64,000 nucleotides of DNA from Nitrososphaerota archaeon (lineage in GTDB: Archaea > Thermoproteota > Nitrososphaeria_A > Caldarchaeales > Calditenuaceae), in NCBI GenBank assembly GCA_038845265.1, contig JAWBQR010000004.1:45978-109977 (forward strand), read 5' to 3'. The position numbers were made by a program, and so were the translations under genes. Below, in pieces: positions 5,470 through 30,831 of this stretch. Under the pieces are notes generated by a model. It was not told the origin of the DNA and did no database searches. It saw only the letters and a list, made by a program, of their open reading frames with translations. The first letter of the stretch is position 1. Every line of letters begins with the position of its first letter.

Positions 5470-6609
5470 ATGATGGTATACAATGAGATAGAGTTTAACC
5501 AGCAGGGTCATTTAAGTGATGCTCCATATGCAGTAGTCATCCTCGAAGATGGCACACTTCTTTATGGCGTAGGATTCGGAGCAACAGGTCGAAGGACTGG
5601 AGAGATCGTCTTCTCAACTTCTATGAATGGATATACAGAATCACTCACAGATCCATCATATATGGGACAAATATTGGTGCTAACTCATCCGTTAGTGGGT
5701 AATTATGGAGTCCCCCCAGACTTTGAGTCAGAGAGGATACAAATAGAGGCCCTCATAGTATCAAGGGCAACTGATCCTAGTCATCCCAGATCAATTAAGT
5801 CATTATCAGAGTGGCTTGAGGAAAACAAAGTCCCCGGAATAATGGATATTGATACAAGGTTTCTAGTCAAGAAAATTAGGGAAAAAGGAGTAATGGGATG
5901 TGCTGTCGAAGTTACATATGACGTAGATTCAGTAAATCCATCAGAATTGCTTCAAGCGGCAAAAAACTTTAATTACGACTTAGCAAAGTTTAGGAACTCA
6001 TCAATCGATGAACTAAAGATCTTTGGTAACGGAGATCAAATAATAGTCATTATAGATCTCGGCGTGAAATTAGGCATAATAAGAAAGCTTCTAAAATATG
6101 GCTTCAAAATTATAGTTACTTCTCCGAAAAACCTCGATGAATTATTAAGATTAAAACCTGCAGGAATAGTAGTCAGTAATGGACCTGGAAACCCTGCGCT
6201 CATGCATGATGAGATAGATAAAGTGGCAACGATAGTTAACGAAGATATTCCGACACTCGGCATATGTCTTGGACATCAGCTCATCGCTCTAGCGTGTGGT
6301 GCCAAAACATTCAAGATGAAGTATGGGCACAGAGGAATTAACAAGCCATGCAGAGATCTCAGGTATGGTAAAAGGGTAATTACACTTCAGAATCATGGAT
6401 ACGCAGTTGATCATAATAGCCTCGAAGGGACAGGCCTTAAACCATGGTTTGTTAATTGTGACGATGGAACAATAGAGGGGCTTTATCATGAGGATGCACC
6501 GGTCATTACTGTTCAGTTCCACCCCGAGGGAGCGCCAGGTCCGCGAGATTCTGAATATGTTTTTGAGGAATTCGCAAGGTTAGTATCGGCCTATGGAAAG
6601 AATATCTAA
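5470..6609 (+). CDS. carA: carbamoyl-phosphate synthase small (glutamine amidotransferase) subunit
   Basis: N-terminal CarA domain (AVVILEDGT...GEIVFSTSMNGYTE) plus a class-I GATase triad region (GICLGHQLIALACGAKTFKMKYGHRG). It overlaps carB by 17 nt. Confidence 0.9.
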   Translation: MMVYNEIEFNQQGHLSDAPYAVVILEDGTLLYGVGFGATGRRTGEIVFSTSMNGYTESLTDPSYMGQILVLTHPLVGNYGVPPDFESERIQIEALIVSRATDPSHPRSIKSLSEWLEENKVPGIMDIDTRFLVKKIREKGVMGCAVEVTYDVDSVNPSELLQAAKNFNYDLAKFRNSSIDELKIFGNGDQIIVIIDLGVKLGIIRKLLKYGFKIIVTSPKNLDELLRLKPAGIVVSNGPGNPALMHDEIDKVATIVNEDIPTLGICLGHQLIALACGAKTFKMKYGHRGINKPCRDLRYGKRVITLQNHGYAVDHNSLEGTGLKPWFVNCDDGTIEGLYHEDAPVITVQFHPEGAPGPRDSEYVFEEFARLVSAYGKNI

Positions 6610-9600
6610 GGTTCTCGTTCTCGGGTCTGGAGGAATTAAGATAGCTGAAGCTGCCGAATTTGATTATAGTGGAAGCCAAGCATTGAAGGCATTAAAAGAG
6701 GAAGGGATCAAAACCGTATTGGTTAATCCTAATGTTGCTACTATTCAGACTTCCCATACACTCGCGGATAAAGTATATCTCCTGCCACTCACGTCAGATT
6801 TTGTTTCACGAGTTATTGAGAAGGAGCGTCCAGACGGCATATTAATTGGTTTCGGCGGCCAGTCAGCACTCTCGACCGGAGTAGAGCTTTATCGTAAAGG
6901 AGTACTTTCTGAGTACAGTGTTAAAGTTTTAGGCACACCCATTGAGGGAATAGAGGCCGCGCTTACACGACATATCTTCCGTGAAACTATGTTGCAGTCG
7001 GGGATACCAATACCGCCCTCCATGCCTGCGACAACAATTGATGGAGCGCTCGAAGCTGCTGAGGAAATAGGTTACCCCGTGATAGTAAGAGTTAGCTTCA
7101 ATCTTGGTGGAAGAGGCAGTTTTATAGCTCGTAGAAGGCAGGATCTCGAGTCAGAACTCTCTAGAGCTTTTTCTCATAGTCCTGTTAAGAGTCTTCTTGT
7201 TGAGAGGTATCTTGATAGATGGAAAGAGATAGAATATGAGATAGTTCGAGATAGGGATGGAAACTCAGTTGCGGTCGCATGTCTGGAAAACATTGAACCG
7301 ATGGGTGTACATACTGGCGAGTCACTAGTAGTCGCTCCGAGCCAGACGCTAACAGACACTGAATATCAATCAATGAGACGCGCGTCCATAAAGGTAGCTG
7401 AAGCAATAAATCTGATTGGTGAGTGTAACGTACAATTAGCGTTAGATCAAAAATCAGGAATGTACTATGTCATCGAGACAAATCCCAGAATGTCCCGAAG
7501 CAGTGCTCTCGCAAGCAAGGCGACAGGATATCCATTAGCATATGTCGCGGCTAAGCTTGCTCTTGGATATCTTCTCGATGAATTAATTAATAAAGTGACT
7601 GGAACCACAACTGCTTTTTTCGAACCGAGCCTTGACTACATTGTTTTGAAGGCGCCGAGATGGGACCTTGAAAAGTTCTGGCCAGTTGAAAATGTCCTGA
7701 ACTCTGAGATGAAGAGCGTCGGTGAGGTAATGGCGATAGGGAGAAACCTAGAAGAGGTCTATCAAAAAGCATTCAGGATGCTAGACATAGGAGTAACCGG
7801 CGTTGTAACCTCAAAAATGTTTGAAGACGAAGAAGCACTTGACAGCATATTATTGAGAATTGAGAATTTCAGGCCATACTGGCTATTAGATATCGCTAAG
7901 GCAATTATACGTGGAGCAACAGTAGAAGATATTTCCTCAAAAACTGGGGTTGACCCATTCTTTATTAGACCTGTGGAGAACATTGTAAAAATAGGAAGAA
8001 GACTCATCAATTTGAAAAAACTGGACGAAAAACAACGCAGATTGATTCTGCGAGAAGCAGTTAAAAATGGATTCTCTGCAGAACAGATAGCTGAACTTTC
8101 AAAATACACGACTAATGAAATAATGACGATGCTTAAGGAATGTTCAATCTTTCCAGTCGCCAAAAATATTGATACACTTGCTGGAGAACAACCCGCTAGA
8201 ACCAACTATCTTTACATGACTTTTAATGGTATCGAAGATGATACTAATCCTTCAGGCAAGGACTCAATTATCATTTTAGGCGCTGGAGGATTTAGAATAG
8301 GAGTGTCAGTCGAGTTTGACTGGGCTGTTGTTGGGATCTACAAGTCACTTAGAGACAAGGGTTGGAATGTCATCGTAATTAATTATAATCCAGAGACCGT
8401 ATCAACGGATTGGGACATTGTACATAGGCTCTACAATGCTGAACTCGCAACCTCTTCATTAATGTGGATTATGGAGAAAGTAAATACAAGGAGGGTAATA
8501 ATATCTGCTGGAGGACAGATTGGCAATAACTTGGCAGTCGAGCTGGCGAAAAACAATTTAGAAATCATAGGGACACCTTCATTATCAATCGATAGAGCAG
8601 AAGACCGGTCTAAATTTAGCAGAGTTGTCGAGGATCTTGGACTGAAACAGCCGCCATGGAACAGGGTAAATAATCTTGTAGACGCATTAGACTTTGCTGA
8701 TGAAGTGGGATATCCAGTAATTGTTAGACCGAGCTATATTCTTAGCGGTTCTTCGATATTCATTGCTTGGAACAAAAAAGAGTTGTCCTCCCTTATAGAG
8801 AAAGTGATTTCTATCTCTGATAAACCAATAGTAATCAGTAAATATTTCGAGGACGCTATAGAGTCAGAAGTCGATGGTGTCACAGACGGTGCCTCAACAT
8901 TAATCGTGCCTCTAGAGCACGTTGAGCCTGCAGGCGTACACAGTGGTGATGCAACGATACACACACCATTAAGAGAATTAGATGAAAGAATGCTTAGAAA
9001 GATGACCGAAACTGCACATTATTTAGTAAAGGAGCTGAAGATAAAGGGCCCTTTCAATGTTCAGTTCATTGTTAAAAATTCCGATCTCTATTTATTAGAA
9101 ATGAATTTGAGATGTAGTAGGTCCATGCCTTTCAGCAGTAAGGCATGCGGCATCAATTTAATGGACCTATGGGCATCAGTAATAACGACCTCGAAACTTA
9201 ATATCCCCAAAAATGCAATAGAAATAAGAAGTAATGTCTTCATACCCAACACTAATGCATGGGCAGTAAAGTCGCCCCAATTTTCTTGGGCACAGTTAAA
9301 GAGGAGTTATCCTTCTCTGAGCCCTGAGATGAGGAGCACAGGAGAGGTGGCGGCTTTAGGACTTACATTCCATGAAGCACTTCTAAAGAGTTGGATATCT
9401 GCGACACCTAATAAAATTCCGAGCAGTGACAAGCCCATATTAATATACACTGCGAATACTCGAGATGCTCACATAATGGAAATGGCTGCAAGGAAATTCA
9501 TGGAGGCGGATTTCGAGGTAGTCACACTAAGCGGTGGGATAATTGACCGATTAGATGCATTAACTGTTGAAGATGCTGTTCACGCAATTAAGAGAAACAC

Positions 9601-9821: not shown

Positions 9822-9895
9822 GAGCCCCGGGCGGGGGTCGAACCCGCGACCTGCCGCTTACAAGGCGGCCGCTCTACCACTGAGCTACCGGGGCC
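9822..9895 (-). tRNA. tRNA-Thr (anticodon UGU)
   Basis: Reverse complement: acceptor GCCCCGG/CCGGGGC, D-arm GCTC-AGTGGTA-GAGC, anticodon stem GCCGC/GCGGC with loop CUUGUAA (anticodon UGU), T-arm GCGGG-TTCGACC-CCCGC. No encoded CCA. Confidence 0.85.
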
Positions 9896-10942
9896 ATTAT
9901 TAAGAAATTAAAAAAGAACGATATTACTTTTTGTCTCTTCACTTACTCAGAGATAAAACCCAAATAATTACAATCCTTCAATCAGTGTTCTTTAGACAGC
10001 CATCATGGTCCTTATGTACATCAGAAAAGACTTGCTCAGCGCTCAAGATCATCTTCATTGACTCCGACTGGCCAGACACATCATCGCTGATATGAGTCTG
10101 TATCTTTTTGTTATTTATGTTTTCTGTTGCCTCTTATTAGTCAATCATCATTATCGATATCTTGCTTTTTGATAACTTTTTATTATTCCAGGCAAACCTA
10201 AGGGCTAGTACGTAGAGTAGAAACTACTGATTCATCTCTATGCCGACAAGAACTTGGAAAAAGGGCGTCCCATAAATTCAGGCGTTCTATTTAGACTATA
10301 AGCATGGATATAATCTGTGGAATCTATGCTGGTCTGCCGATAGAGAGGCTTACGAATTCTTTATATTCATCGACTTTGGCCGATATATTATGATGCTCAG
10401 AATTTTTTAATTGTTTCGCTAGTGTTTTCAGGGCTTCCAAACCTAGTATGGTCCCCACGTATGGAACTTAATCTTGGAGTGTGGGAAGCTAATCCTCCTA
10501 TAGACGTGTACGCCATGAGGACCGGTGAATGTGCGACTGAGTTAGAAGAATACTTAATAAATACTTTGCTAATTGCTTTTGAGATTCTAGACAGGCGGTG
10601 ATTCGTTTTATTTCAGAGATGGGAAATAAATATGATGGTTTATTCGCACTTCAGTTTAGAGAGACAAACAACGAGGACGAGGCGGACGTAATTTTTTTAT
10701 GCTGACCAACTAGGTATGGGGATTGGAGTGATAACATTTTTATCTAATACGCCTCCTTTTGAAGTAGTAGATTGTGAAGTCGGCATAGCAAACATATATG
10801 TGCGGTCTCTGGTTATACTTCATGAACTCTATCATACACTTGGAACCCATAAAACCATGAAAGAGGCTTCCTTTTGGGAATGAATGCAATTGGACAGGTT
10901 CATTATCGCAAATTCTAAATGCAGAATGACGGTTTTATATCT

Positions 10943-12127
10943 TTATTTTTGAGGAGTATCTGTTAGCTTCATTTTCAAAGGCAGTGGCATGTGTCTTCTG
11001 CTTGTCGAGATGTATATGATGTCTTCGTCTCTGATTCCTGCATCGATAAGTTTCTGGTCGTCATTCAGTCTTTTTGTGCCGTGGAGTATCTCTGGGTCTG
11101 GAAAGCTATATCTGAGGGCTATTATCTCTTTAAGAGTCTGGATAGTCCAGTCGGGATGAGCATTTATTGATTGTACCTGTTCTTCTACGTCCCCGCATAC
11201 TATGCATTCCTTCATTCTTGCGAGTTTTACTCTTGTTAATCTTGAATGTAATGCGTCATAGACAAACAACCCAGTATCGGGCTCGCCCAGTCTGCCTTTG
11301 TGTAAAAGTTTTATGACCTGAGTAGTCATGAGTCCTGCAATTGTGGCTGAGACGCTCTGAATTGCAGGCGACTTAGGTTTCAGCCTATCCCTCACTTCAA
11401 GGATTAATTTACTAAGTTCTGGAGCTAATTCATTAATAATATTCTCTAACTTACTATACTTTAGGTCGTATATCGTCTTAATATTTAATCTAAAAAGCTC
11501 TTCCGCTACTTCTCTGCTGATTACTATGCCTTGTTCCATCAGGTCCTTTACTAGCTCATCCGGACTCCTTCTCCTAAGCGTGCATTCAGCCAATCTCTCT
11601 TCACGTGATATGAGGTTTTCACCATGACATTCTAGACATGCAGTTCTTCCAGGAATCACTACTTGGACATTTCCATAAAATCCCTCAATGCTCCCATCGA
11701 CCATAGGCTTACCTAGCGAGACGCAGAGGGAATTTAACCATCTCCTAACACCCCAGCTATCAAGACACGAGCAGACTACGTCAGAATCCTCGAAGACTTT
11801 CTCAGGCAACTGTCTCACATCTGAATTGTAATACACAACGTCGACGAATCTATTCATACTTTTTATTTTTTGAGCAGCTACCTCACTTTTAGGCTTACCA
11901 ATATCATTCTCAGTGAATAGCATCTGTCTACTCAGGTTGCTTAACTCTACAACATCATTATCAATCAATACTAATTTTCCAATGCCCATTAATGCTAAGT
12001 TCTTAGCTACCTCGCAACCAAGTGCACCTACTCCCACAATAGCAACCGCACCATTCTGAACGGAGCTCTGATCCCATCCAGGAGTCCTTGCCTGCCTATC
12101 GTATCTTTCTTGAATTTCTGTGTCCAT
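10943..12127 (-). CDS. E1-like ubiquitin-activating enzyme (ThiF/MoeB adenylation domain + Zn motif + C-terminal possible ubiquitin-fold domain)
   Basis: RYDRQ...AIVGVGALGCEVAKNLALMGIGKLVLIDNDVVELSNLSRQ is the E1/MoeB nucleotide-binding fold. CLECHGEN and CIVCGD form the paired CxxC zinc motif. About 90 aa after the second CxxC could be a ubiquitin-fold/β-grasp domain like the C-terminal domain of eukaryotic E1s (inferred from position, not from a recognised motif). It is the last gene of the Ubl-E2-E1 operon. Confidence 0.85.
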   Translation of the reverse strand: MDTEIQERYDRQARTPGWDQSSVQNGAVAIVGVGALGCEVAKNLALMGIGKLVLIDNDVVELSNLSRQMLFTENDIGKPKSEVAAQKIKSMNRFVDVVYYNSDVRQLPEKVFEDSDVVCSCLDSWGVRRWLNSLCVSLGKPMVDGSIEGFYGNVQVVIPGRTACLECHGENLISREERLAECTLRRRSPDELVKDLMEQGIVISREVAEELFRLNIKTIYDLKYSKLENIINELAPELSKLILEVRDRLKPKSPAIQSVSATIAGLMTTQVIKLLHKGRLGEPDTGLFVYDALHSRLTRVKLARMKECIVCGDVEEQVQSINAHPDWTIQTLKEIIALRYSFPDPEILHGTKRLNDDQKLIDAGIRDEDIIYISTSRRHMPLPLKMKLTDTPQK

Positions 12128-12133
12128 GTTGTT

Positions 12134-12628
12134 TCAAAGATATACTGATGAGCTCTCAGGAGTGGCATAGAGATTTATGTATTGTCTAACCCTAGCAATG
12201 AATCGCTCTGGCCAATTCTTCATCTCGTGGGCTGCCCATGCATTTAGGGGATCGTCAGGGTTAGGGTTCGTCAATAGATTTTTCAAGGCTTCTATTACTG
12301 ATACAACATGCATATTGGGATACCAGTCCTTGTTAAGTATAGACTCACATATCCTAGCAGGAACCTCATCTGTAAAGTTTGGATGCCAGATCCTGGTGTG
12401 CCAAACTACCTGTGGAGGTGTGAATGGAAATGACCGCTGCAAAAAGATCTCAACGACGAATACTCCGCCCTCATATATCCCAGTACCAATTATTGTCCCC
12501 TTATAGTGTGTCAAATCTCCATATACAGCGTCGAAGGTAGGCTCATAGTTCCTGATTAACTGGTACTCTTGTGCTAGGCGCTTCTCCCACTTTGCCTGTG
12601 AGAGCATGCCTACCTCCGACGACTCCAT
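12134..12628 (-). CDS. E2-like ubiquitin-conjugating enzyme (UBC fold)
   Basis: Canonical UBC active-site block WHTRIWHPNFTDEVPARICESILNKDWYPNMHV (HPN motif, catalytic Cys, W-x-P). Length 164 aa. There is a 6-nt gap to the E1 gene and a 2-nt gap to the Ubl gene. Confidence 0.85.
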   Translation of the reverse strand: MESSEVGMLSQAKWEKRLAQEYQLIRNYEPTFDAVYGDLTHYKGTIIGTGIYEGGVFVVEIFLQRSFPFTPPQVVWHTRIWHPNFTDEVPARICESILNKDWYPNMHVVSVIEALKNLLTNPNPDDPLNAWAAHEMKNWPERFIARVRQYINLYATPESSSVYL

Positions 12629-12630
12629 GA

Positions 12631-12867
12631 CTATCCACCTACTGTCCTAGTGATCAGGACTAACTTGTCTCCTTCTGCTACGCCTGCTGAAGAAAGTGTT
12701 TCAGTGTCGTTCAGCGCACGGCCTTTATAGGTCAGACGAGTATCATCAGGCCTTAGCTTCTTCATAGCGCAGACACGCATCTTTATGGCGCCTATACTAG
12801 CTGTCGGAGGCACATCTAACTCAATTGGTGGGCCACCACCGACTGCCGGTACTATCCGGATCTTCAA
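12631..12867 (-). CDS. ubiquitin-like small modifier (beta-grasp), C-terminal Gly-Gly directly followed by stop
   Basis: 78-aa protein MKIRIVP...GDKLVLITRTVGG*. It starts with a beta-strand (K-I-R-I-V), has a hydrophobic patch region and ends in a GG C-terminus with no pro-peptide. It is the first gene of the operon with E2 and E1. Confidence 0.8.
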   Translation of the reverse strand: MKIRIVPAVGGGPPIELDVPPTASIGAIKMRVCAMKKLRPDDTRLTYKGRALNDTETLSSAGVAEGDKLVLITRTVGG

Positions 12868-13056
12868 ATCTACTCAACGGTTTTTTAGCCAGTGGCATAT
12901 AAAAATGTTAACTTAACTCCAGAAGCTAGTCATGGCTACATTATCGATGTAGCACACCACCATTGAGGTATTCTCTACAGAGTCTTAAGAAAATACATAT
13001 TTAGCAGTTAAAAAAGCCGAGTTTATAGGCAAGCTTAACATATATATTCCAAAGAA
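12868..13056. promoter_or_regulatory. divergent promoter region between Ubl-E2-E1 operon and JAMM gene
   Basis: A TATA-like element on the minus strand (complement of GCATATAAAAATG, 12895-12907) sits ~30 bp upstream of the Ubl start. TATA-like TTTATAGG (13022-13029) sits ~30 bp upstream of the JAMM start, implying near-leaderless mRNAs. Between them is the inverted repeat CTACAT-tatcg-ATGTAG (12936-12952). Confidence 0.4.
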
Positions 13057-13674
13057 TTGCGGGTTAGGATATTTCCCGTGGCGTTGGGTAAAGTTATCTA
13101 TCATGCATCAACTAGCCCTAATGTTGAGGTGGCAGGATTATTGCTGGGCAAAGAGACGAGAGGAATAGTTGAGGTGTGGGACGCTGTTACTGGGCCACAG
13201 GAGGGGCACGCTGGATATGTAAAATTAAATGAGGAAGTCATGGCGATTGTAGCAGAAAAATTAATGACGCTTGGATTAGATATTTACATAGTTGGTTGGT
13301 ATCATTCTCACCCTGGATATGGTCTCTTTCTCTCCGCAATAGATGTCCGCACCCAGCTTGCATATCAAGCCTTATATCCAAAATCAATAGCGTTAGTAAT
13401 CGATCCATCCAAGTTTATAGAGCATGGAGACATAACTGATGTTGCATTTAAAGTTTTTAGAGTAGACGGTAAATTAGGAGTAATCGAAGTACCGTCATCC
13501 ATAGGCATGGATAGGAAAAAGGTATTGGAGTCTACACTTGCCGCTCTTAAAGGGTTAAACATTGACAACTCATTTCTGCTTCAAGAGTCGCCCTTAATGT
13601 TTGACAGAGCTAAGAAAGCCCTAGTAGATGTCGGTAAGAAGATATTTAGACGTGAAGTGGTGAGCAAGAAATGA
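13057..13674 (+). CDS. JAMM/MPN+ metalloisopeptidase (Rpn11/deubiquitinase-like) with C-terminal extension
   Basis: JAMM motif E-x(n)-HSHPGYGLFLSAID (EVAGLLLGK ... WYHSHPGYGLFLSAIDV). The gene is divergent from the Ubl operon across 189 bp. The ORF begins at TTG 13057, with a TATA-like TTTATAGG about 31 bp upstream. About 70 extra C-terminal residues lie beyond the MPN core. Confidence 0.85.
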   Translation: MRVRIFPVALGKVIYHASTSPNVEVAGLLLGKETRGIVEVWDAVTGPQEGHAGYVKLNEEVMAIVAEKLMTLGLDIYIVGWYHSHPGYGLFLSAIDVRTQLAYQALYPKSIALVIDPSKFIEHGDITDVAFKVFRVDGKLGVIEVPSSIGMDRKKVLESTLAALKGLNIDNSFLLQESPLMFDRAKKALVDVGKKIFRREVVSKK

Positions 13675-14456
13675 GTGAACGAAAGAAGATAGTAATTAAA
13701 AGGCGTTTATTTGACCAGGCACCAGAAGGCACCTTGCCATTAGTTCCTGAGACTGAGAAACCCAAGGAGAGAGAAGAAGACTTGACTTCTCAGCAACAGC
13801 AACCATTTGAAAATCTGAGCAAACCTCATGATTTATCAATTATTGATGCAGCAATTGAAAGATTTAATGAATTAATGAATAAAATAACTGAAATTAGGAG
13901 TAGGGATAGAACTATGCAGAAAGTTTTCCATAGGCAAGACTTTGTAGATCTAAGAGTGATAAAAAAGAAGCTGGATGAGTTGACAAACATGAGGAGCGAG
14001 GTATTGGCTGATGCCGGGCCAGTCGAGAATCTTCTTAATGAAGCTGTCAGCGTACTGGAAGCAGAGATGGTGAAACTTGAAGAGCAGTTATTTGAAAAAT
14101 TAGTAGAGATTGAATCTATTAGGGATTCTAATAATAAGTTGGAAATAGATAAATCAATACTCGAAAAACTCGAGGAAGAAGCTGACCGTATACGTGAAAA
14201 TATTTCCTCCGTTCATGGAAGAATATCTGAACTCCAATCAAAGATAGAACAGTTGAAGTCATTACCTCAGTCTATTAATGAATTAACTACGAGTGATGAG
14301 ATAGCTGAACCTCTCCTTAGGGATCTTATTTCCAGATTCAAGGATGAGGCAAGGGTCAATTCTGCAATTGAGAAAGTAATGCAAGATGAAGCAGTTCCGA
14401 AGCAATATGCAATAATATATTTGTGGAAAAGGCTCTATAAACCGAAAGTATCATGA
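13671..14456 (+). CDS. coiled-coil protein of unknown function, translationally coupled to the JAMM gene
   Basis: 261 aa, Cys-free. Disordered acidic/Q-rich N-terminus, then long heptad-like helices (ELTNMRSEVLADAG...LEAEMVKLEEQLFEKLVEIESIRD...). Its ATG overlaps the JAMM stop (ATGA at 13671-13674). Confidence 0.55.
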   Translation: MSERKKIVIKRRLFDQAPEGTLPLVPETEKPKEREEDLTSQQQQPFENLSKPHDLSIIDAAIERFNELMNKITEIRSRDRTMQKVFHRQDFVDLRVIKKKLDELTNMRSEVLADAGPVENLLNEAVSVLEAEMVKLEEQLFEKLVEIESIRDSNNKLEIDKSILEKLEEEADRIRENISSVHGRISELQSKIEQLKSLPQSINELTTSDEIAEPLLRDLISRFKDEARVNSAIEKVMQDEAVPKQYAIIYLWKRLYKPKVS

Positions 14457-14513
14457 TCGTCTGTGGAAATATTAAAATAGTGTTTTATTATCTATGATTT
14501 TAAAGATCGGGGT

Positions 14514-15068
14514 TTGGCGTACGCGTTGCTGTTTTTAGGAATTGATAATTTCTTCTCATTGCTTATTAGTAATGTTCTTCATCTCGTCGCGCCATTCATG
14601 CTAATTCTGGGCTCGATTCTGGCTTTTACAGGGCGTAGGCTAATTAAGCTGCTTGTATTTTTTGCCGGTGGACTATTAGGCGGTGCGATGGCATATTTTC
14701 TTGCGTTGGATATATTTGGAGAGACTTGGGCATTAATAATAAGTATAGTTGGATTCGTAGGTATCGGATTGCTCTGTGTTGCTTTTATTCCAATTGTTTT
14801 TGGCATATCGATAGGGTTCTTGGCATATCATGCAGCGGGTGTATTTTTTGAAAATGTATTGATCTGTATTATTGTGGGAGTTGTTGCGTTTGTAATTGGT
14901 ATACTTCTCTACAATCACGTTCTTTCGATCATTACCGCAATTGTCGGTGGGTCATTAATACTTCAAGGTCTTGTCTCATTAGGGATACCTACATACACAT
15001 CAATTATAGTTACATTCTTATTAATAATCGCTGGAGTTGTATTTCAGTTTCGCCAACTTTCTAAATAG
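14514..15068 (+). CDS. small polytopic membrane protein (4-5 TM), unknown function
   Basis: 184 aa made almost entirely of hydrophobic helices with GG/GxxxG packing motifs. Same strand and 57 nt downstream of the coiled-coil gene. Confidence 0.5.
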   Translation: MAYALLFLGIDNFFSLLISNVLHLVAPFMLILGSILAFTGRRLIKLLVFFAGGLLGGAMAYFLALDIFGETWALIISIVGFVGIGLLCVAFIPIVFGISIGFLAYHAAGVFFENVLICIIVGVVAFVIGILLYNHVLSIITAIVGGSLILQGLVSLGIPTYTSIIVTFLLIIAGVVFQFRQLSK

Positions 15069-15112: not shown

Positions 15113-17083
15113 ATGTCTGCCGCTACACGTGTTAGAAGGCAGTTTACTAAATTGATAGTTGTTGAAGCTGGGGAAGGAATAATGTTGAACAAGTTAAGGG
15201 ATGAGGTTTTCAACTACCTCGCAAGCATCGGCAAGGGCGAGAGAATAGCTACGAGAATAGACTTCGAAGGCCCACGTCTAGTGATATATACTGATAGGCC
15301 TGAAATCTTCGCTGAGAGAAATAAAGTAGCAAAAGAACTTGTAAACTTAATAAAGAAACGCGTAATCATAAGACCTGACGAATCGCTTAGGAAACCAAAA
15401 GACGAGGCGAAAAAAGTACTAGAGGAATTTTTGAGAGACATAGAATTCACTATATATTTTGATGATAATTTCGGCGAAGTGATAATAGAAGGAAAAGATC
15501 CACGCATCTACAAGATACTCGACCAGTCCTCAACCACTCCTTTAGAACAGAATATTGGATGGATAATAAATGTCTATAGAACCCCACTACTAGCATCCAA
15601 AACTGTTGAAAAATTGAAGCGATACATATTTGGAGATACGGAGAAACGAGTAGAAATACTTAGATCAATAGGAGAGAAAGTCTTTAGAGACCAGTTATTC
15701 GAGCCAGGCGAAGTAACTGTAACGGTCCTTGGATCTGGCATGCAGGTAGGTAGGTCAGCTCTACTCGTTAGGACGAGAGAAAGCACGGTCCTGCTAGACT
15801 GTGGAATTAATGCAGGTGCTTCAAAAAACATCGACATGCTACCGAGATTTGATGCCGTGCCAGACCTTATAGACTCGCTTGATGCAGTCGTGATTACTCA
15901 TTCACATATGGACCATCACGGCGCGTTGCCTCTCCTATTCAAATATGGTTACCGAGGCCCTGTTTACATGACGGAGCCCACACTTCCCCTCCTACTTATG
16001 GAACAACTCGACTACGTTAATTTAGCTGGAAAGGAAGGATTTTTCCCCCTCTACACAGAAAATGAGGTTAGGCTTTTAGCACAATATGCAGTGACATTAA
16101 AATACGGCGTGGTGACAAATATTACGCCTGACATTAGATTGACTTTCTATAATGCTGGGCATATAATGGGTTCGGCTATCGCTCATCTACATATTGGAGA
16201 GGGATTCCATAACTTGGTTTATACAGGCGACTTCAAATTTGAGAAGACACGTATGCTTGACGCTGCGGCATCTAAGTTCCTCAGATTGGAGTCCTTGATA
16301 ATAGAGAGCACGTACGGCGCAACGCCTGTTCCATACACACGTGAAGAGAGTGAAAAGCTGGTCGCTGAGTATATCGGGAAAACAATTGAGAGAGGAGGCG
16401 TTGTGATTATTCCGGTACCATCCGTTGGCAGGGCCCAAGAAATAATGTTGGTGATTAAAAATCTGTTTGAATCTAAAGAGATACCGGAGGCGCCCATATT
16501 CCTTGATGGACTACTAATAGAGGCTACGGCGATACATACAATGTATCCTGAATATCTATCAGAGGAGATTCAGAAAGAGATTGAAGAGCATGGAAATGTA
16601 TTTCTGTCTGACTATTTCACGATTGTGAAGAGTCACCAACATAGGGAGGAAATACTCGAAAGCAAAGAGCCGGCAATAATAATAGCCACTTCGGGCATGC
16701 TTGAAGGCGGGCCAATACTGAAGTACTTCAGAGAATTCGCTGGTGACGAAAAAAACTTACTTTTATTCGTCAGTTACCAAGTTGAAGGAACTCTGGGAAG
16801 AAAACTTTTGAAAAAAATAAATGAAGTCCAGCTATTGAACGAGGAAGGAAAGCAAGAGGTTATTAAGGTTAATCTTGAGATAGAGAAAGTCGATGGGTTC
16901 TCTGGACATTCAAGCAGACAGCAGATAATCAATTACATTAGAAGAATTTCTCCAAGGCCAAAGCAAATACTATTTGTTCATGGCGAGCCGGAGGCAACCA
17001 CGAATATTGCATCAAGTATTAAAAAGATGATGCCGGTAGAGATTTACACGCCAAAGAATCTAGAGACGATAACTCTTACGTAA
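15113..17083 (+). CDS. aCPSF1 (KH-KH-beta-CASP/metallo-beta-lactamase ribonuclease; archaeal transcription termination factor FttA-type)
   Basis: N-terminal KH region, MBL motif VITHSHMDHHGALP, beta-CASP motifs and C-terminal ...FSGHSSRQQIINYI...FVHGEP. The 656-aa length is typical. Confidence 0.9.
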   Translation: MSAATRVRRQFTKLIVVEAGEGIMLNKLRDEVFNYLASIGKGERIATRIDFEGPRLVIYTDRPEIFAERNKVAKELVNLIKKRVIIRPDESLRKPKDEAKKVLEEFLRDIEFTIYFDDNFGEVIIEGKDPRIYKILDQSSTTPLEQNIGWIINVYRTPLLASKTVEKLKRYIFGDTEKRVEILRSIGEKVFRDQLFEPGEVTVTVLGSGMQVGRSALLVRTRESTVLLDCGINAGASKNIDMLPRFDAVPDLIDSLDAVVITHSHMDHHGALPLLFKYGYRGPVYMTEPTLPLLLMEQLDYVNLAGKEGFFPLYTENEVRLLAQYAVTLKYGVVTNITPDIRLTFYNAGHIMGSAIAHLHIGEGFHNLVYTGDFKFEKTRMLDAAASKFLRLESLIIESTYGATPVPYTREESEKLVAEYIGKTIERGGVVIIPVPSVGRAQEIMLVIKNLFESKEIPEAPIFLDGLLIEATAIHTMYPEYLSEEIQKEIEEHGNVFLSDYFTIVKSHQHREEILESKEPAIIIATSGMLEGGPILKYFREFAGDEKNLLLFVSYQVEGTLGRKLLKKINEVQLLNEEGKQEVIKVNLEIEKVDGFSGHSSRQQIINYIRRISPRPKQILFVHGEPEATTNIASSIKKMMPVEIYTPKNLETITLT

Positions 17084-29339: not shown

Positions 29340-30831
<1,492 letters not shown>

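Follow-up and report, generated by a model that had tools for sequence, protein, structure and literature searches.

Does the Rpn11-like deubiquitinase of archaeal ubiquitin systems act with a dedicated partner? The question is raised by a 64,000-nt stretch of DNA (hereafter the window) from a Calditenuaceae genome of the Nitrososphaerota (contig JAWBQR010000004.1, positions 45,978 to 109,977 of the forward strand), which contains a reduced Caldiarchaeum-type ubiquitin cassette. Contiguous genes for ubiquitin (Ub) with a C-terminal GG, a UBC-fold E2 and a ThiF-type E1 lie on the minus strand (10943–12867). An Rpn11-like JAMM gene is located divergently on the plus strand and is directly followed by a gene for a helical coiled-coil protein (here called CC). 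Among prokaryotic models for how eukaryotic ubiquitylation arose, the Caldiarchaeum-type cassette is the most thoroughly studied. In vitro reconstitution has been achieved for its E1, E2, RING E3 and Rpn11, a crystal structure is available for the Rpn11 (CsRpn11), and the literature regards CsRpn11 as an enzyme that works alone. Both the cassette and its JAMM protein were therefore already known; what is new is CC, an unrecognised conserved accessory gene. JAMM and CC form a conserved pair in most of the order Caldarchaeales, including Caldiarchaeum subterraneum. On the basis of gene context, they may constitute a bicistronic module in which CC assists the deubiquitinase as a non-catalytic partner or adaptor, a reading on which our confidence is evenly balanced.

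Conservation of the pair was assessed in one genome per GTDB species. An alignment of the Rpn11-like JAMM recovered 65 loci (designated by the prefix L), 60 of which contain a clear ortholog and nearly all of which are labelled Caldarchaeales or “Aigarchaeota.” CC was sought with a CC profile over all six-frame open reading frames (ORFs) of these loci. It was found directly downstream of JAMM, on the same strand, in 38 of the 60 loci; 20 are without it and two end early and are uninformative, giving 38 of 58 informative genomes. The CC-bearing loci are labelled Caldarchaeum (including two C. subterraneum metagenome-assembled genomes, MAGs), Terraquivivens, Pelearchaeum, Calditenuis or Calditenuaceae, or come from other MAGs, among them the window clade. 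In the 37 junctions that were scored, JAMM and CC overlap by 1, 4 or 8 nt in 14, are separated by 0–20 nt in eight and by 21–50 nt in 15; overlaps of 4 or 8 nt are also present in L001–L004. The gene beyond CC differs by lineage and is FttA, the membrane protein gene of the window (here called TM184), an Lrp/AsnC regulator, a convergent DUF35-OB/thiolase pair, a class II aminoacyl-tRNA synthetase or a convergent uS7 gene, which indicates that the JAMM-CC adjacency has outlasted repeated rearrangement. The adjacency holds even for CC members that are only 24–28% identical to the CC of the window, and an additional context look-up (L071) again returned Ub and E2 together with JAMM-CC. TM184 is outside this conserved module.

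The pair is also present in the organism from which the characterised enzyme was obtained. In one C. subterraneum MAG (L039), the JAMM gene (6001–6609) encodes a protein with five substitutions relative to crystallised CsRpn11 across 169 residues, and a CC homolog of 264 aa (6641–7435) is located 31 nt downstream. By its position, this homolog should be the unlabelled neighbour of CSUB_C1473 in Figure 3 of Nunoura et al. (2011). According to its legend, the figure names only rpn11l, ubl, e2l, e1l and srfp, and the other coding sequences are hypothetical proteins. The CC gene appears not to be discussed in the published work on the C. subterraneum cassette or CsRpn11, and no literature mention was found of CSUB_C1472, the locus tag guessed for it from its position. 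A preliminary description of the window had held that described archaeal ubiquitin cassettes have no such partner, which is incorrect at the genome level, as CC follows CsRpn11 in C. subterraneum. Its proposal that the coiled-coil protein is a new accessory component is plausible, given the frequency of the pair, the restriction of the family to one order and the varied downstream genes.

The CC family was aligned from 38 distinct members recovered from genomes, and a confident AlphaFold2 (AF2) model of the window protein was built on a family alignment (predicted local distance difference test, pLDDT, 78; predicted template modelling score, pTM, 0.64). In the model, residues 1–52 are disordered and are followed by three long helices and a compact helical domain (Table 1), with no strands; this matches the disordered acidic N-terminus and long helices that had been anticipated from the sequence. 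The motif M-[PS]-x-[KR][KR]-[IV]-[IV]-[ILV]-[KR] is found at the extreme N-terminus of all 38 distinct members (MSERKKIVIKRRL in the window, MPKKIVLRIK in Caldarchaeum). The acidic P/E/Q-rich tether that follows is variable in length and sequence across the family, and conservation is highest where helix 3 ends (LPxxI...T[TS]) and within the C-terminal domain (E.[IV]P..YA.I.LWK).

Among 5.8 billion proteins searched, 11 CC clusters were found, eight at 72–100% identity and three at approximately 45%. An exhaustive profile search of 1.84 billion representatives returned 14 clusters at E < 1e-10 and otherwise a single repeat-protein artefact. Each of the 14 clusters matches JAMM-adjacent genes best (34–100% identity), and in this search the family was found only in Caldarchaeales (“Aigarchaeota”). 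Its members are named “hypothetical protein” or carry spurious coiled-coil labels in the databases, and one is labelled “phage shock protein A” by the Joint Genome Institute (JGI). Comparison of CC with Pfam and NCBIfam gave no family match and only sub-threshold coiled-coil matches, and its C-terminal domain had no Pfam match even at E ≤ 10. Nothing was found below E 0.004 among PDB sequence profiles, or at E ≤ 0.001 in a Foldseek search of the model against the PDB; such matches as there were reflected coiled-coil composition or a generic bundle of helices. No UBA, CUE, UIM, RING or other ubiquitin-related domain was detectable in CC. A fusion (“Rosetta stone”) search with the CC profile found no longer or fused proteins, the sizes being 259–270 aa (197–283 aa in the exhaustive search). 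CC is a small, real and previously undescribed family without a Pfam, PDB-sequence or fold relative; no description of it was found in the literature on ubiquitin and Rpn11 in Aigarchaeota/Caldarchaeales, subscription journals being outside the coverage.

Several known families were considered for CC, and none was supported. A prefoldin would be shorter (approximately 110–150 aa, versus 261 aa) and would show beta-hairpins, which are absent from the model, and no Pfam prefoldin match was obtained; a prefoldin match in the PDB is at the level of the coiled coil only (E 0.006). Scores against SMC/Rad50 profiles were 15–23 bits versus cutoffs of 567–1000 and reflect the coiled coil only, and CC has no room for ATPase heads. 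By these tests, CC is not a prefoldin or SMC protein, housekeeping families of the kind that the preliminary description had named as alternatives. The loose resemblance to ESCRT-like proteins that it proposed was not borne out by family profiles. Neither a Snf7 nor a PspA_IM30 profile match, as expected of an ESCRT-III/Snf7/PspA protein, was found among the Pfam matches of the window CC at E ≤ 1 (the best 25 of 28) or those of 16 members at E ≤ 0.01. An MPN– partner of the Rpn8, CSN6 or Abraxas type was rejected on the lack of a JAB/MPN match and the all-helical model. Paralogy with CC302 or smallCC, two coiled-coil proteins of related cassettes that are introduced below, was rejected on hhalign probabilities of 16% and 2%, respectively, and the weak matches of the CC hidden Markov model to smallCC are coiled-coil noise.

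The JAMM protein of the window is, by sequence, an ortholog of the characterised C. subterraneum deubiquitinase CsRpn11, and the same activity is predicted for it. It matches CsRpn11 (PDB 6FJU) at E 1.3e-49 over residues 1–169 with approximately 50% identity; the next matches, at approximately 1e-20, are eukaryotic CSN5 and RPN11, and Pfam JAB is matched at 6e-17. Its metal-binding motif (E24, H83-S-H85, S93 and D96) is intact and is invariant in the alignment, CsRpn11 included. The NCBIfam desampylase model scores only 20.5 bits versus a cutoff of 130, and archaeal SAMP-type JAMMs are not among the closest relatives of the protein. CsRpn11 cleaves both Ub precursors and Ub conjugates (PMC6043591, PMC5654768). 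It is 202 aa long, with residues 149–202 forming helices H4 and H5, the latter unresolved in the crystal; deletion of residues 149–202 leaves the kinetics unchanged, and H4/H5 are thus dispensable for catalysis. The preliminary description had noted an extension of ~70 aa in the window JAMM beyond its MPN core. The extension comprises approximately 57 aa (149–205) and is a family trait rather than a peculiarity, because it corresponds to the known H4/H5 of CsRpn11; a C-terminal extension of the Rpn11-like protein had already been noted by Nunoura et al. (2011). The alignment with 6FJU extends to residue 169, i.e., through H4, and the plan of the tail is constant in the 60 orthologs: H4 (RKKLLESTL) is followed by an acidic linker and, at the very end, by a short helix that is basic and amphipathic. 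Examples of the latter are LLGKAKKLFG, FDRAKKALVDVGKKIFRR and VIKKFKEKL, and the helix of the window has a hydrophobic moment (muH) of 0.83.

Two loci depart from this plan. In L031 (JAMM gene 5989–6795) and L036 (5932–6783), the Rpn11-like protein ends in a hydrophobic segment resembling a transmembrane (TM) helix (...LFLLIIALIIAFIIIIIKSFIIGIP and ...GLIAMALAAVAIMVLVAFIFAIG, respectively), which replaces the amphipathic helix and hints at a deubiquitinase acting at the membrane. Mature Ub (GG-stop) is encoded in the window clade and in most CC-less loci, and propeptides of 1–19 aa are found in most Caldarchaeum and Terraquivivens loci; across loci, the propeptides do not correlate with the presence of CC. 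As the Ub of the window clade already ends in GG, precursor processing by JAMM is unnecessary there, and the retained enzyme must therefore serve deconjugation or another role.

The geometry of the JAMM-CC junction is as first described: the ATGA overlap, the 57-nt spacer behind CC, the Cys-free protein of 261 aa and the common strand were all confirmed. Expression signals were located by simple pattern matching for TATA boxes and Shine-Dalgarno sequences and are indicative only, a sigma-70 scanner being inapplicable to archaea. TATA-like boxes are found 28–43 nt upstream of the JAMM, TM184 and FttA starts (TTTATA at –35 of the JAMM TTG, and at –28 for FttA), and TTTTTATA is found at –38 of the Ub start; the same pattern matching found no TATA-like box upstream of CC. 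The GGTGA that precedes CC is complementary to the 3′-end of the 16S rRNA encoded in the window itself (...GGATCACCTCCT). The spacer between CC and TM184 is probably a terminator/promoter boundary. Such signals would fit a JAMM-CC bicistron behind which TM184 and FttA each have a promoter of their own. JAMM, CC and TM184 are all real genes under purifying selection: compared with their orthologs in L006 and L004, the ratios of nonsynonymous to synonymous differences (pN/pS; synonymous sites are saturated) are 0.09–0.16 for JAMM, 0.13–0.18 for CC and 0.27–0.34 for TM184.

The preliminary description had combined JAMM, CC and TM184 into a three-gene unit, and the third gene does not share the conservation of the other two. 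A lack of joint conservation in related genomes, which that description had named as grounds for refuting it, applies to this third gene. A membrane protein of 184 aa does follow 57 nt downstream of CC, with about 6–7 hydrophobic segments rather than the 4–5 TM segments first assigned. The TM184 family comprises only eight clusters, all at least 61% identical. TM184 is present only in L004–L006, the nearest relatives of the window, and is absent at this position in all other lineages, including the clade with a 45%-identical CC, in which FttA directly follows CC. TM184 is a young insertion between CC and FttA, limited to the close clade of the window. It evolves two to three times faster than JAMM or CC, as judged by pN/pS, is probably transcribed from a separate promoter and does not belong to the module. 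Its AF2 model is modest (pLDDT 72.6, pTM 0.45) and gave no fold match, and an assignment to TM7S3/TM198-like DUF4203 was rejected (PF13886 best match E 0.22, 11.6 bits versus a cutoff of 29.2). FttA follows JAMM-CC across the wider clade of the window (L001, L008, L010, L012–L014, L016, L017 and L049) with few exceptions, namely the insertion of TM184 in the window subclade, approximately 2 kb of intervening sequence in L012 and no FttA found in L007. This synteny is probably without a functional link, because FttA has its own TATA-like box.

In C. subterraneum, the cassette comprises the Ub-like CSUB_C1474, the E2-like C1475, the E1-like C1476, srfp (C1477) and the divergent Rpn11-like C1473 (CsRpn11, PDB 6FJU/6FJV). 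Caldarchaeum-type cassettes (L039 1763–3951, with equivalents in 31–34 loci) contain extra conserved genes beyond E1, besides the known srfp RING gene. These encode smallCC, a coiled-coil protein of 103 aa with a YLETPKG motif, located directly after srfp; CC302, a divergent coiled-coil protein of 302 aa; and TM-RING, a polytopic membrane protein of 266 aa with a C-terminal RING, to which Fuchs et al. presumably refer as a “second E3.” A phmmer search with the C. subterraneum srfp and TM-RING found neither in the 64-kb window or the wider-clade loci, and found them in 31–34 related loci; homologs of CC302 and smallCC were likewise undetected in the window and wider-clade loci. The absence of E3 genes concerns the window and these loci, not the rest of the genome. 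The earlier proposal that (de)ubiquitylation is placed at the membrane draws some independent support from the TM-RING E3 and the L031 and L036 tails, and none from TM184.

If CC is a partner of the deubiquitinase, JAMM and CC would be made from one mRNA in coupled amounts and would then work together, with CC as a scaffold, adaptor or regulator. The helical bundle of CC or its C-terminal domain could bind the enzyme, perhaps at helices H4/H5, which catalysis does not require, and the tethered N-terminal motif could reach a second partner or the substrate groove of the enzyme. The pair would in this respect resemble the dependence of eukaryotic Rpn11-family enzymes on helical partners. Eukaryotic Rpn11 needs partners (PMC6043591, PMC5654768), and the dispensable residues 149–202 of CsRpn11 would leave room for one. 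Several observations weigh against a partnership. CsRpn11 is a monomer, described as “highly active on its own” in vitro (PMC6043591, PMC5654768), so CC is not required for catalysis. The 20 informative genomes without CC keep Ub-E2-E1 and JAMM, and CC is therefore dispensable for the system; these genomes are labelled Wolframiiraptor, Geocrenenecus, Benthortus, AUK and other MAGs, and in most of them L21e and Rpb4/RpoF come directly after JAMM, in others a methyltransferase or V4R protein. Conservation of the JAMM tail does not differ between lineages that have CC and those that lack it, which argues against a tail that exists only for CC binding. The most divergent CC member (L070) has no preceding JAMM and follows a divergently oriented Fe-ADH-type gene. 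The sampled genomes all come from one order, so the synteny may be partly inherited rather than selected, and start/stop overlaps are common in prokaryotic operons and are no proof of a functional link. These same points (CC-less cassettes, L070 and single-order sampling) would be explained if CC were a generic structural coiled coil unrelated to ubiquitin and its adjacency to JAMM were inherited synteny, as would the purely compositional nature of its matches to known families (Rad50/SMC at 15–23 bits, prefoldin at E 0.006). Such an origin is nevertheless unlikely, as the adjacency is kept at 24–28% CC identity and in at least six downstream contexts, with overlaps or very short spacers, and the family was not found outside the cassette lineages among the 1.84 billion representatives and has neither ATPase heads nor prefoldin beta-hairpins.

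It is likewise unlikely, though slightly less so, that CC belongs to the ubiquitin system without acting via the deubiquitinase, for example as a Ub receptor, a substrate adaptor or scaffold of E2, or a major substrate. The family occurs only in cassette-bearing genomes and is encoded within the cassette, its tethered N-terminal motif and C-terminal domain are adaptor-like in layout, and the lack of srfp, TM-RING, CC302 and smallCC leaves an adaptor role vacant in the window and wider-clade loci. However, CC is coupled specifically to the JAMM gene rather than to the Ub-E2-E1 operon, ubiquitin-related domains were undetected in it, and Caldarchaeum-type genomes have RING E3s as well as CC, which is therefore no E3 substitute. 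The partner interpretation could be extended further, with CC as the obligate in vivo partner of the archaeal Rpn11-like enzyme and a primitive counterpart of the helical scaffolds of Rpn11, CSN5 and BRCC36, its N-terminal motif either gating the active site as a mimic of the Ub tail or bringing the enzyme to some other machine, which might be a membrane RING E3, an AAA unfoldase or the proteasome; this extended form is decidedly unlikely. A related and improbable role is that of a pseudo-substrate regulator, in which the basic N-terminal strand of CC would mimic beta5 and the tail of Ub, occupy the JAMM groove and gate the enzyme. No other feature of the family is as invariant as this motif, which is borne on a flexible tether, and published structure work has the Ub tail binding CsRpn11 by beta-strand pairing with Ins-1. 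The sequences compared were KKIVIKRRL (window) and KKIVLRIK (Caldarchaeum) for CC and ...KLVLITRTVGG for the Ub of the window; the likeness is short, was read by eye without statistics and is weaker for the cognate archaeal Ub than for the eukaryotic one, the tail of which is ...LVLRLRGG. A three-part module in which TM184 anchors (de)ubiquitylation at the membrane is very improbable, the phyletic distribution having largely refuted it. JAMM, CC and TM184 are close together on one strand and are conserved in L004–L006, and relatives offer membrane hints in the TM-RING E3, the TM-like JAMM tails of L031 and L036 and, generally, the basic amphipathic C-terminus of JAMM. Against this stand the absence of TM184 at this position elsewhere, its mere eight clusters and faster evolution, the AT-rich spacer with TATA-like box and T-run that sets it apart, and the lack of any domain suggestive of docking.

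The features of the locus are listed in Table 1. The E1-like protein matches Pfam ThiF at 5e-62 and has a weak C-terminal ubiquitin-like match, and its orthologs are found at the same position in more than 50 loci. Downstream of E1, positions 10124–10942 (approximately 820 nt, GC 0.38) contain no ORF of at least 60 aa on either strand and show no similarity to the ABC-transporter genes at the equivalent position of L004. A C/D-box small RNA-like element is found nearby at 10033–10088 (–), with visible C, D′, C′ and D boxes; Rfam snoPyro_CD scores 25 bits (E 0.01) versus a gathering score of 45. The element shares 80–92% nucleotide identity with short stretches in L006, L004, L008 and L001, in which the flanking genes differ, and is probably a genuine, conserved guide RNA that falls short of the Rfam threshold. 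A complete archaeal small subunit (SSU) rRNA gene is located at 29340–30831 (+), with no large subunit (LSU) rRNA match across the 64 kb; apparently, the LSU gene is either not linked to it or more than 30 kb distant. Proteins identical to those of the window have been deposited under the name “Nitrososphaerota archaeon” from MAGs.

Table 1. Features of the ubiquitin cassette and the JAMM-CC locus, in window coordinates.
Feature	Position	Strand	Remarks
tRNA-Thr	9822–9894	–	
ORF-poor stretch, ~1 kb	about 9895–10942		Between tRNA-Thr and the E1-like gene
E1-like ubiquitin-activating enzyme, 394 aa	10943–12127	–	Last gene of the Ub-E2-E1 operon
E2-like ubiquitin-conjugating enzyme, 164 aa	12134–12628	–	Pfam UQ_con 6e-29; HPN...C motif in translation
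Eukaryote-type ubiquitin, 78 aa	12631–12867	–	Pfam ubiquitin 1.7e-12; mature form, ends ...TRTVGG-stop
Ub/JAMM divergent intergenic region	12868–13056		TATA-like boxes in both directions
Rpn11-like JAMM/MPN+ deubiquitinase (predicted), 205 aa, TTG start	13057–13674	+	CsRpn11 ortholog
JAMM C-terminal region, aa 149–205	13501–13674	+	H4 (RKKVLESTL), linker, basic amphipathic terminal helix FDRAKKALVDVGKKIFRR
Shine-Dalgarno-like GGTGA within the JAMM 3′-end	13659–13663	+	7 nt before the CC start codon
ATGA start/stop overlap, JAMM/CC	13671–13674	+	JAMM stop TGA 13672–13674; CC ATG 13671–13673
CC, Cys-free helical protein, 261 aa	13671–14456	+	Undescribed Caldarchaeales-restricted family
CC N-terminal basic strand-like motif MSERKKIVIKRRL	13671–13709	+	Conserved
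CC acidic P/E/Q-rich disordered linker, aa 14–52	13710–13826	+	pLDDT <50
CC three long helices, aa 56–88, 94–154, 161–196	13836–14258	+	Elongated bundle
CC C-terminal small helical domain, aa 198–256	14262–14438	+	Best-conserved motifs
AT-rich spacer CC/TM184, 57 nt	14457–14513		TATA-like ATTAAAAT at 14471–14478; T-rich run
TM184, Gly-rich polytopic membrane protein, 184 aa, TTG start	14514–15068	+	Clade-specific
FttA/aCPSF1	15113–17083	+	Pfam KH_TffA, Lactamase_B, Beta-Casp, RMMBL; context only

CC was found only in these Caldarchaeales and adjoins the gene for Rpn11 in two thirds of the species sampled, which makes it a candidate for the cellular context that has been missing from work on the enzyme. 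The presence of CC in C. subterraneum means that the existing recombinant system could be used to test it directly. The “minimal” cassette also has at least three further conserved and unannotated neighbours, the TM-RING protein and two other coiled-coil proteins, and the lineage of the window has dropped all recognisable E3s from the neighbourhood and kept JAMM-CC. Were CC an obligate partner, the shift from a free to a partner-dependent JAMM enzyme would predate eukaryotes, and following CC could reveal the physiological targets of archaeal ubiquitylation; were it unrelated to ubiquitin, the outcome would be only a corrected annotation.

Of the known systems, the C. subterraneum cassette is the closest to that of the window. 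The two share gene order, the divergent layout and the C-terminal helices of JAMM. They differ in that the window has no srfp RING E3, TM-RING E3, CC302 or smallCC near the cassette, encodes Ub without a propeptide where C. subterraneum has one, and shows a JAMM/CC overlap in place of the 31-nt spacing, with a TM gene and FttA following. Eukaryotic JAMM complexes include Rpn11-Rpn8 in the proteasome lid, CSN5-CSN6, and BRCC36 with Abraxas/KIAA0157, in which helical bundles take part. In these Rpn11-family complexes, an MPN+ enzyme with helices beyond its core has a dedicated non-catalytic helical partner, as may also be the case for JAMM-CC. The eukaryotic partners carry an MPN– domain, whereas CC has none, and CsRpn11 is active alone, so the likeness would be an analogy of mechanism and not of membership. 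The eukaryotic lid, CSN and eIF3 complexes are built from MPN and PCI domains. In an uncultured archaeon (L067, CAZYEE010000176, 907–2538, +), a single chain of 543 aa combines TPR, JAB/MPN+ and PCI; its JAB/MPN+ is apparently active, with HSHP present, and PCI (PF01399) scores 30.3 bits versus a cutoff of 22. A further comparison is offered by a Bathyarchaeota MAG (L065, WJJB01000114, 5956–8010, +), in which a protein of 684 aa consists of an Rpn11-like JAMM fused to approximately 480 aa of helical sequence. This helical region has an internal duplication and is unmatched by the CC profiles, and the organism belongs to a different phylum-level group. The JAMM core is of the same subfamily (38% identity over residues 3–153), and the pairing is similar in kind to JAMM-CC, with both parts on a single chain.

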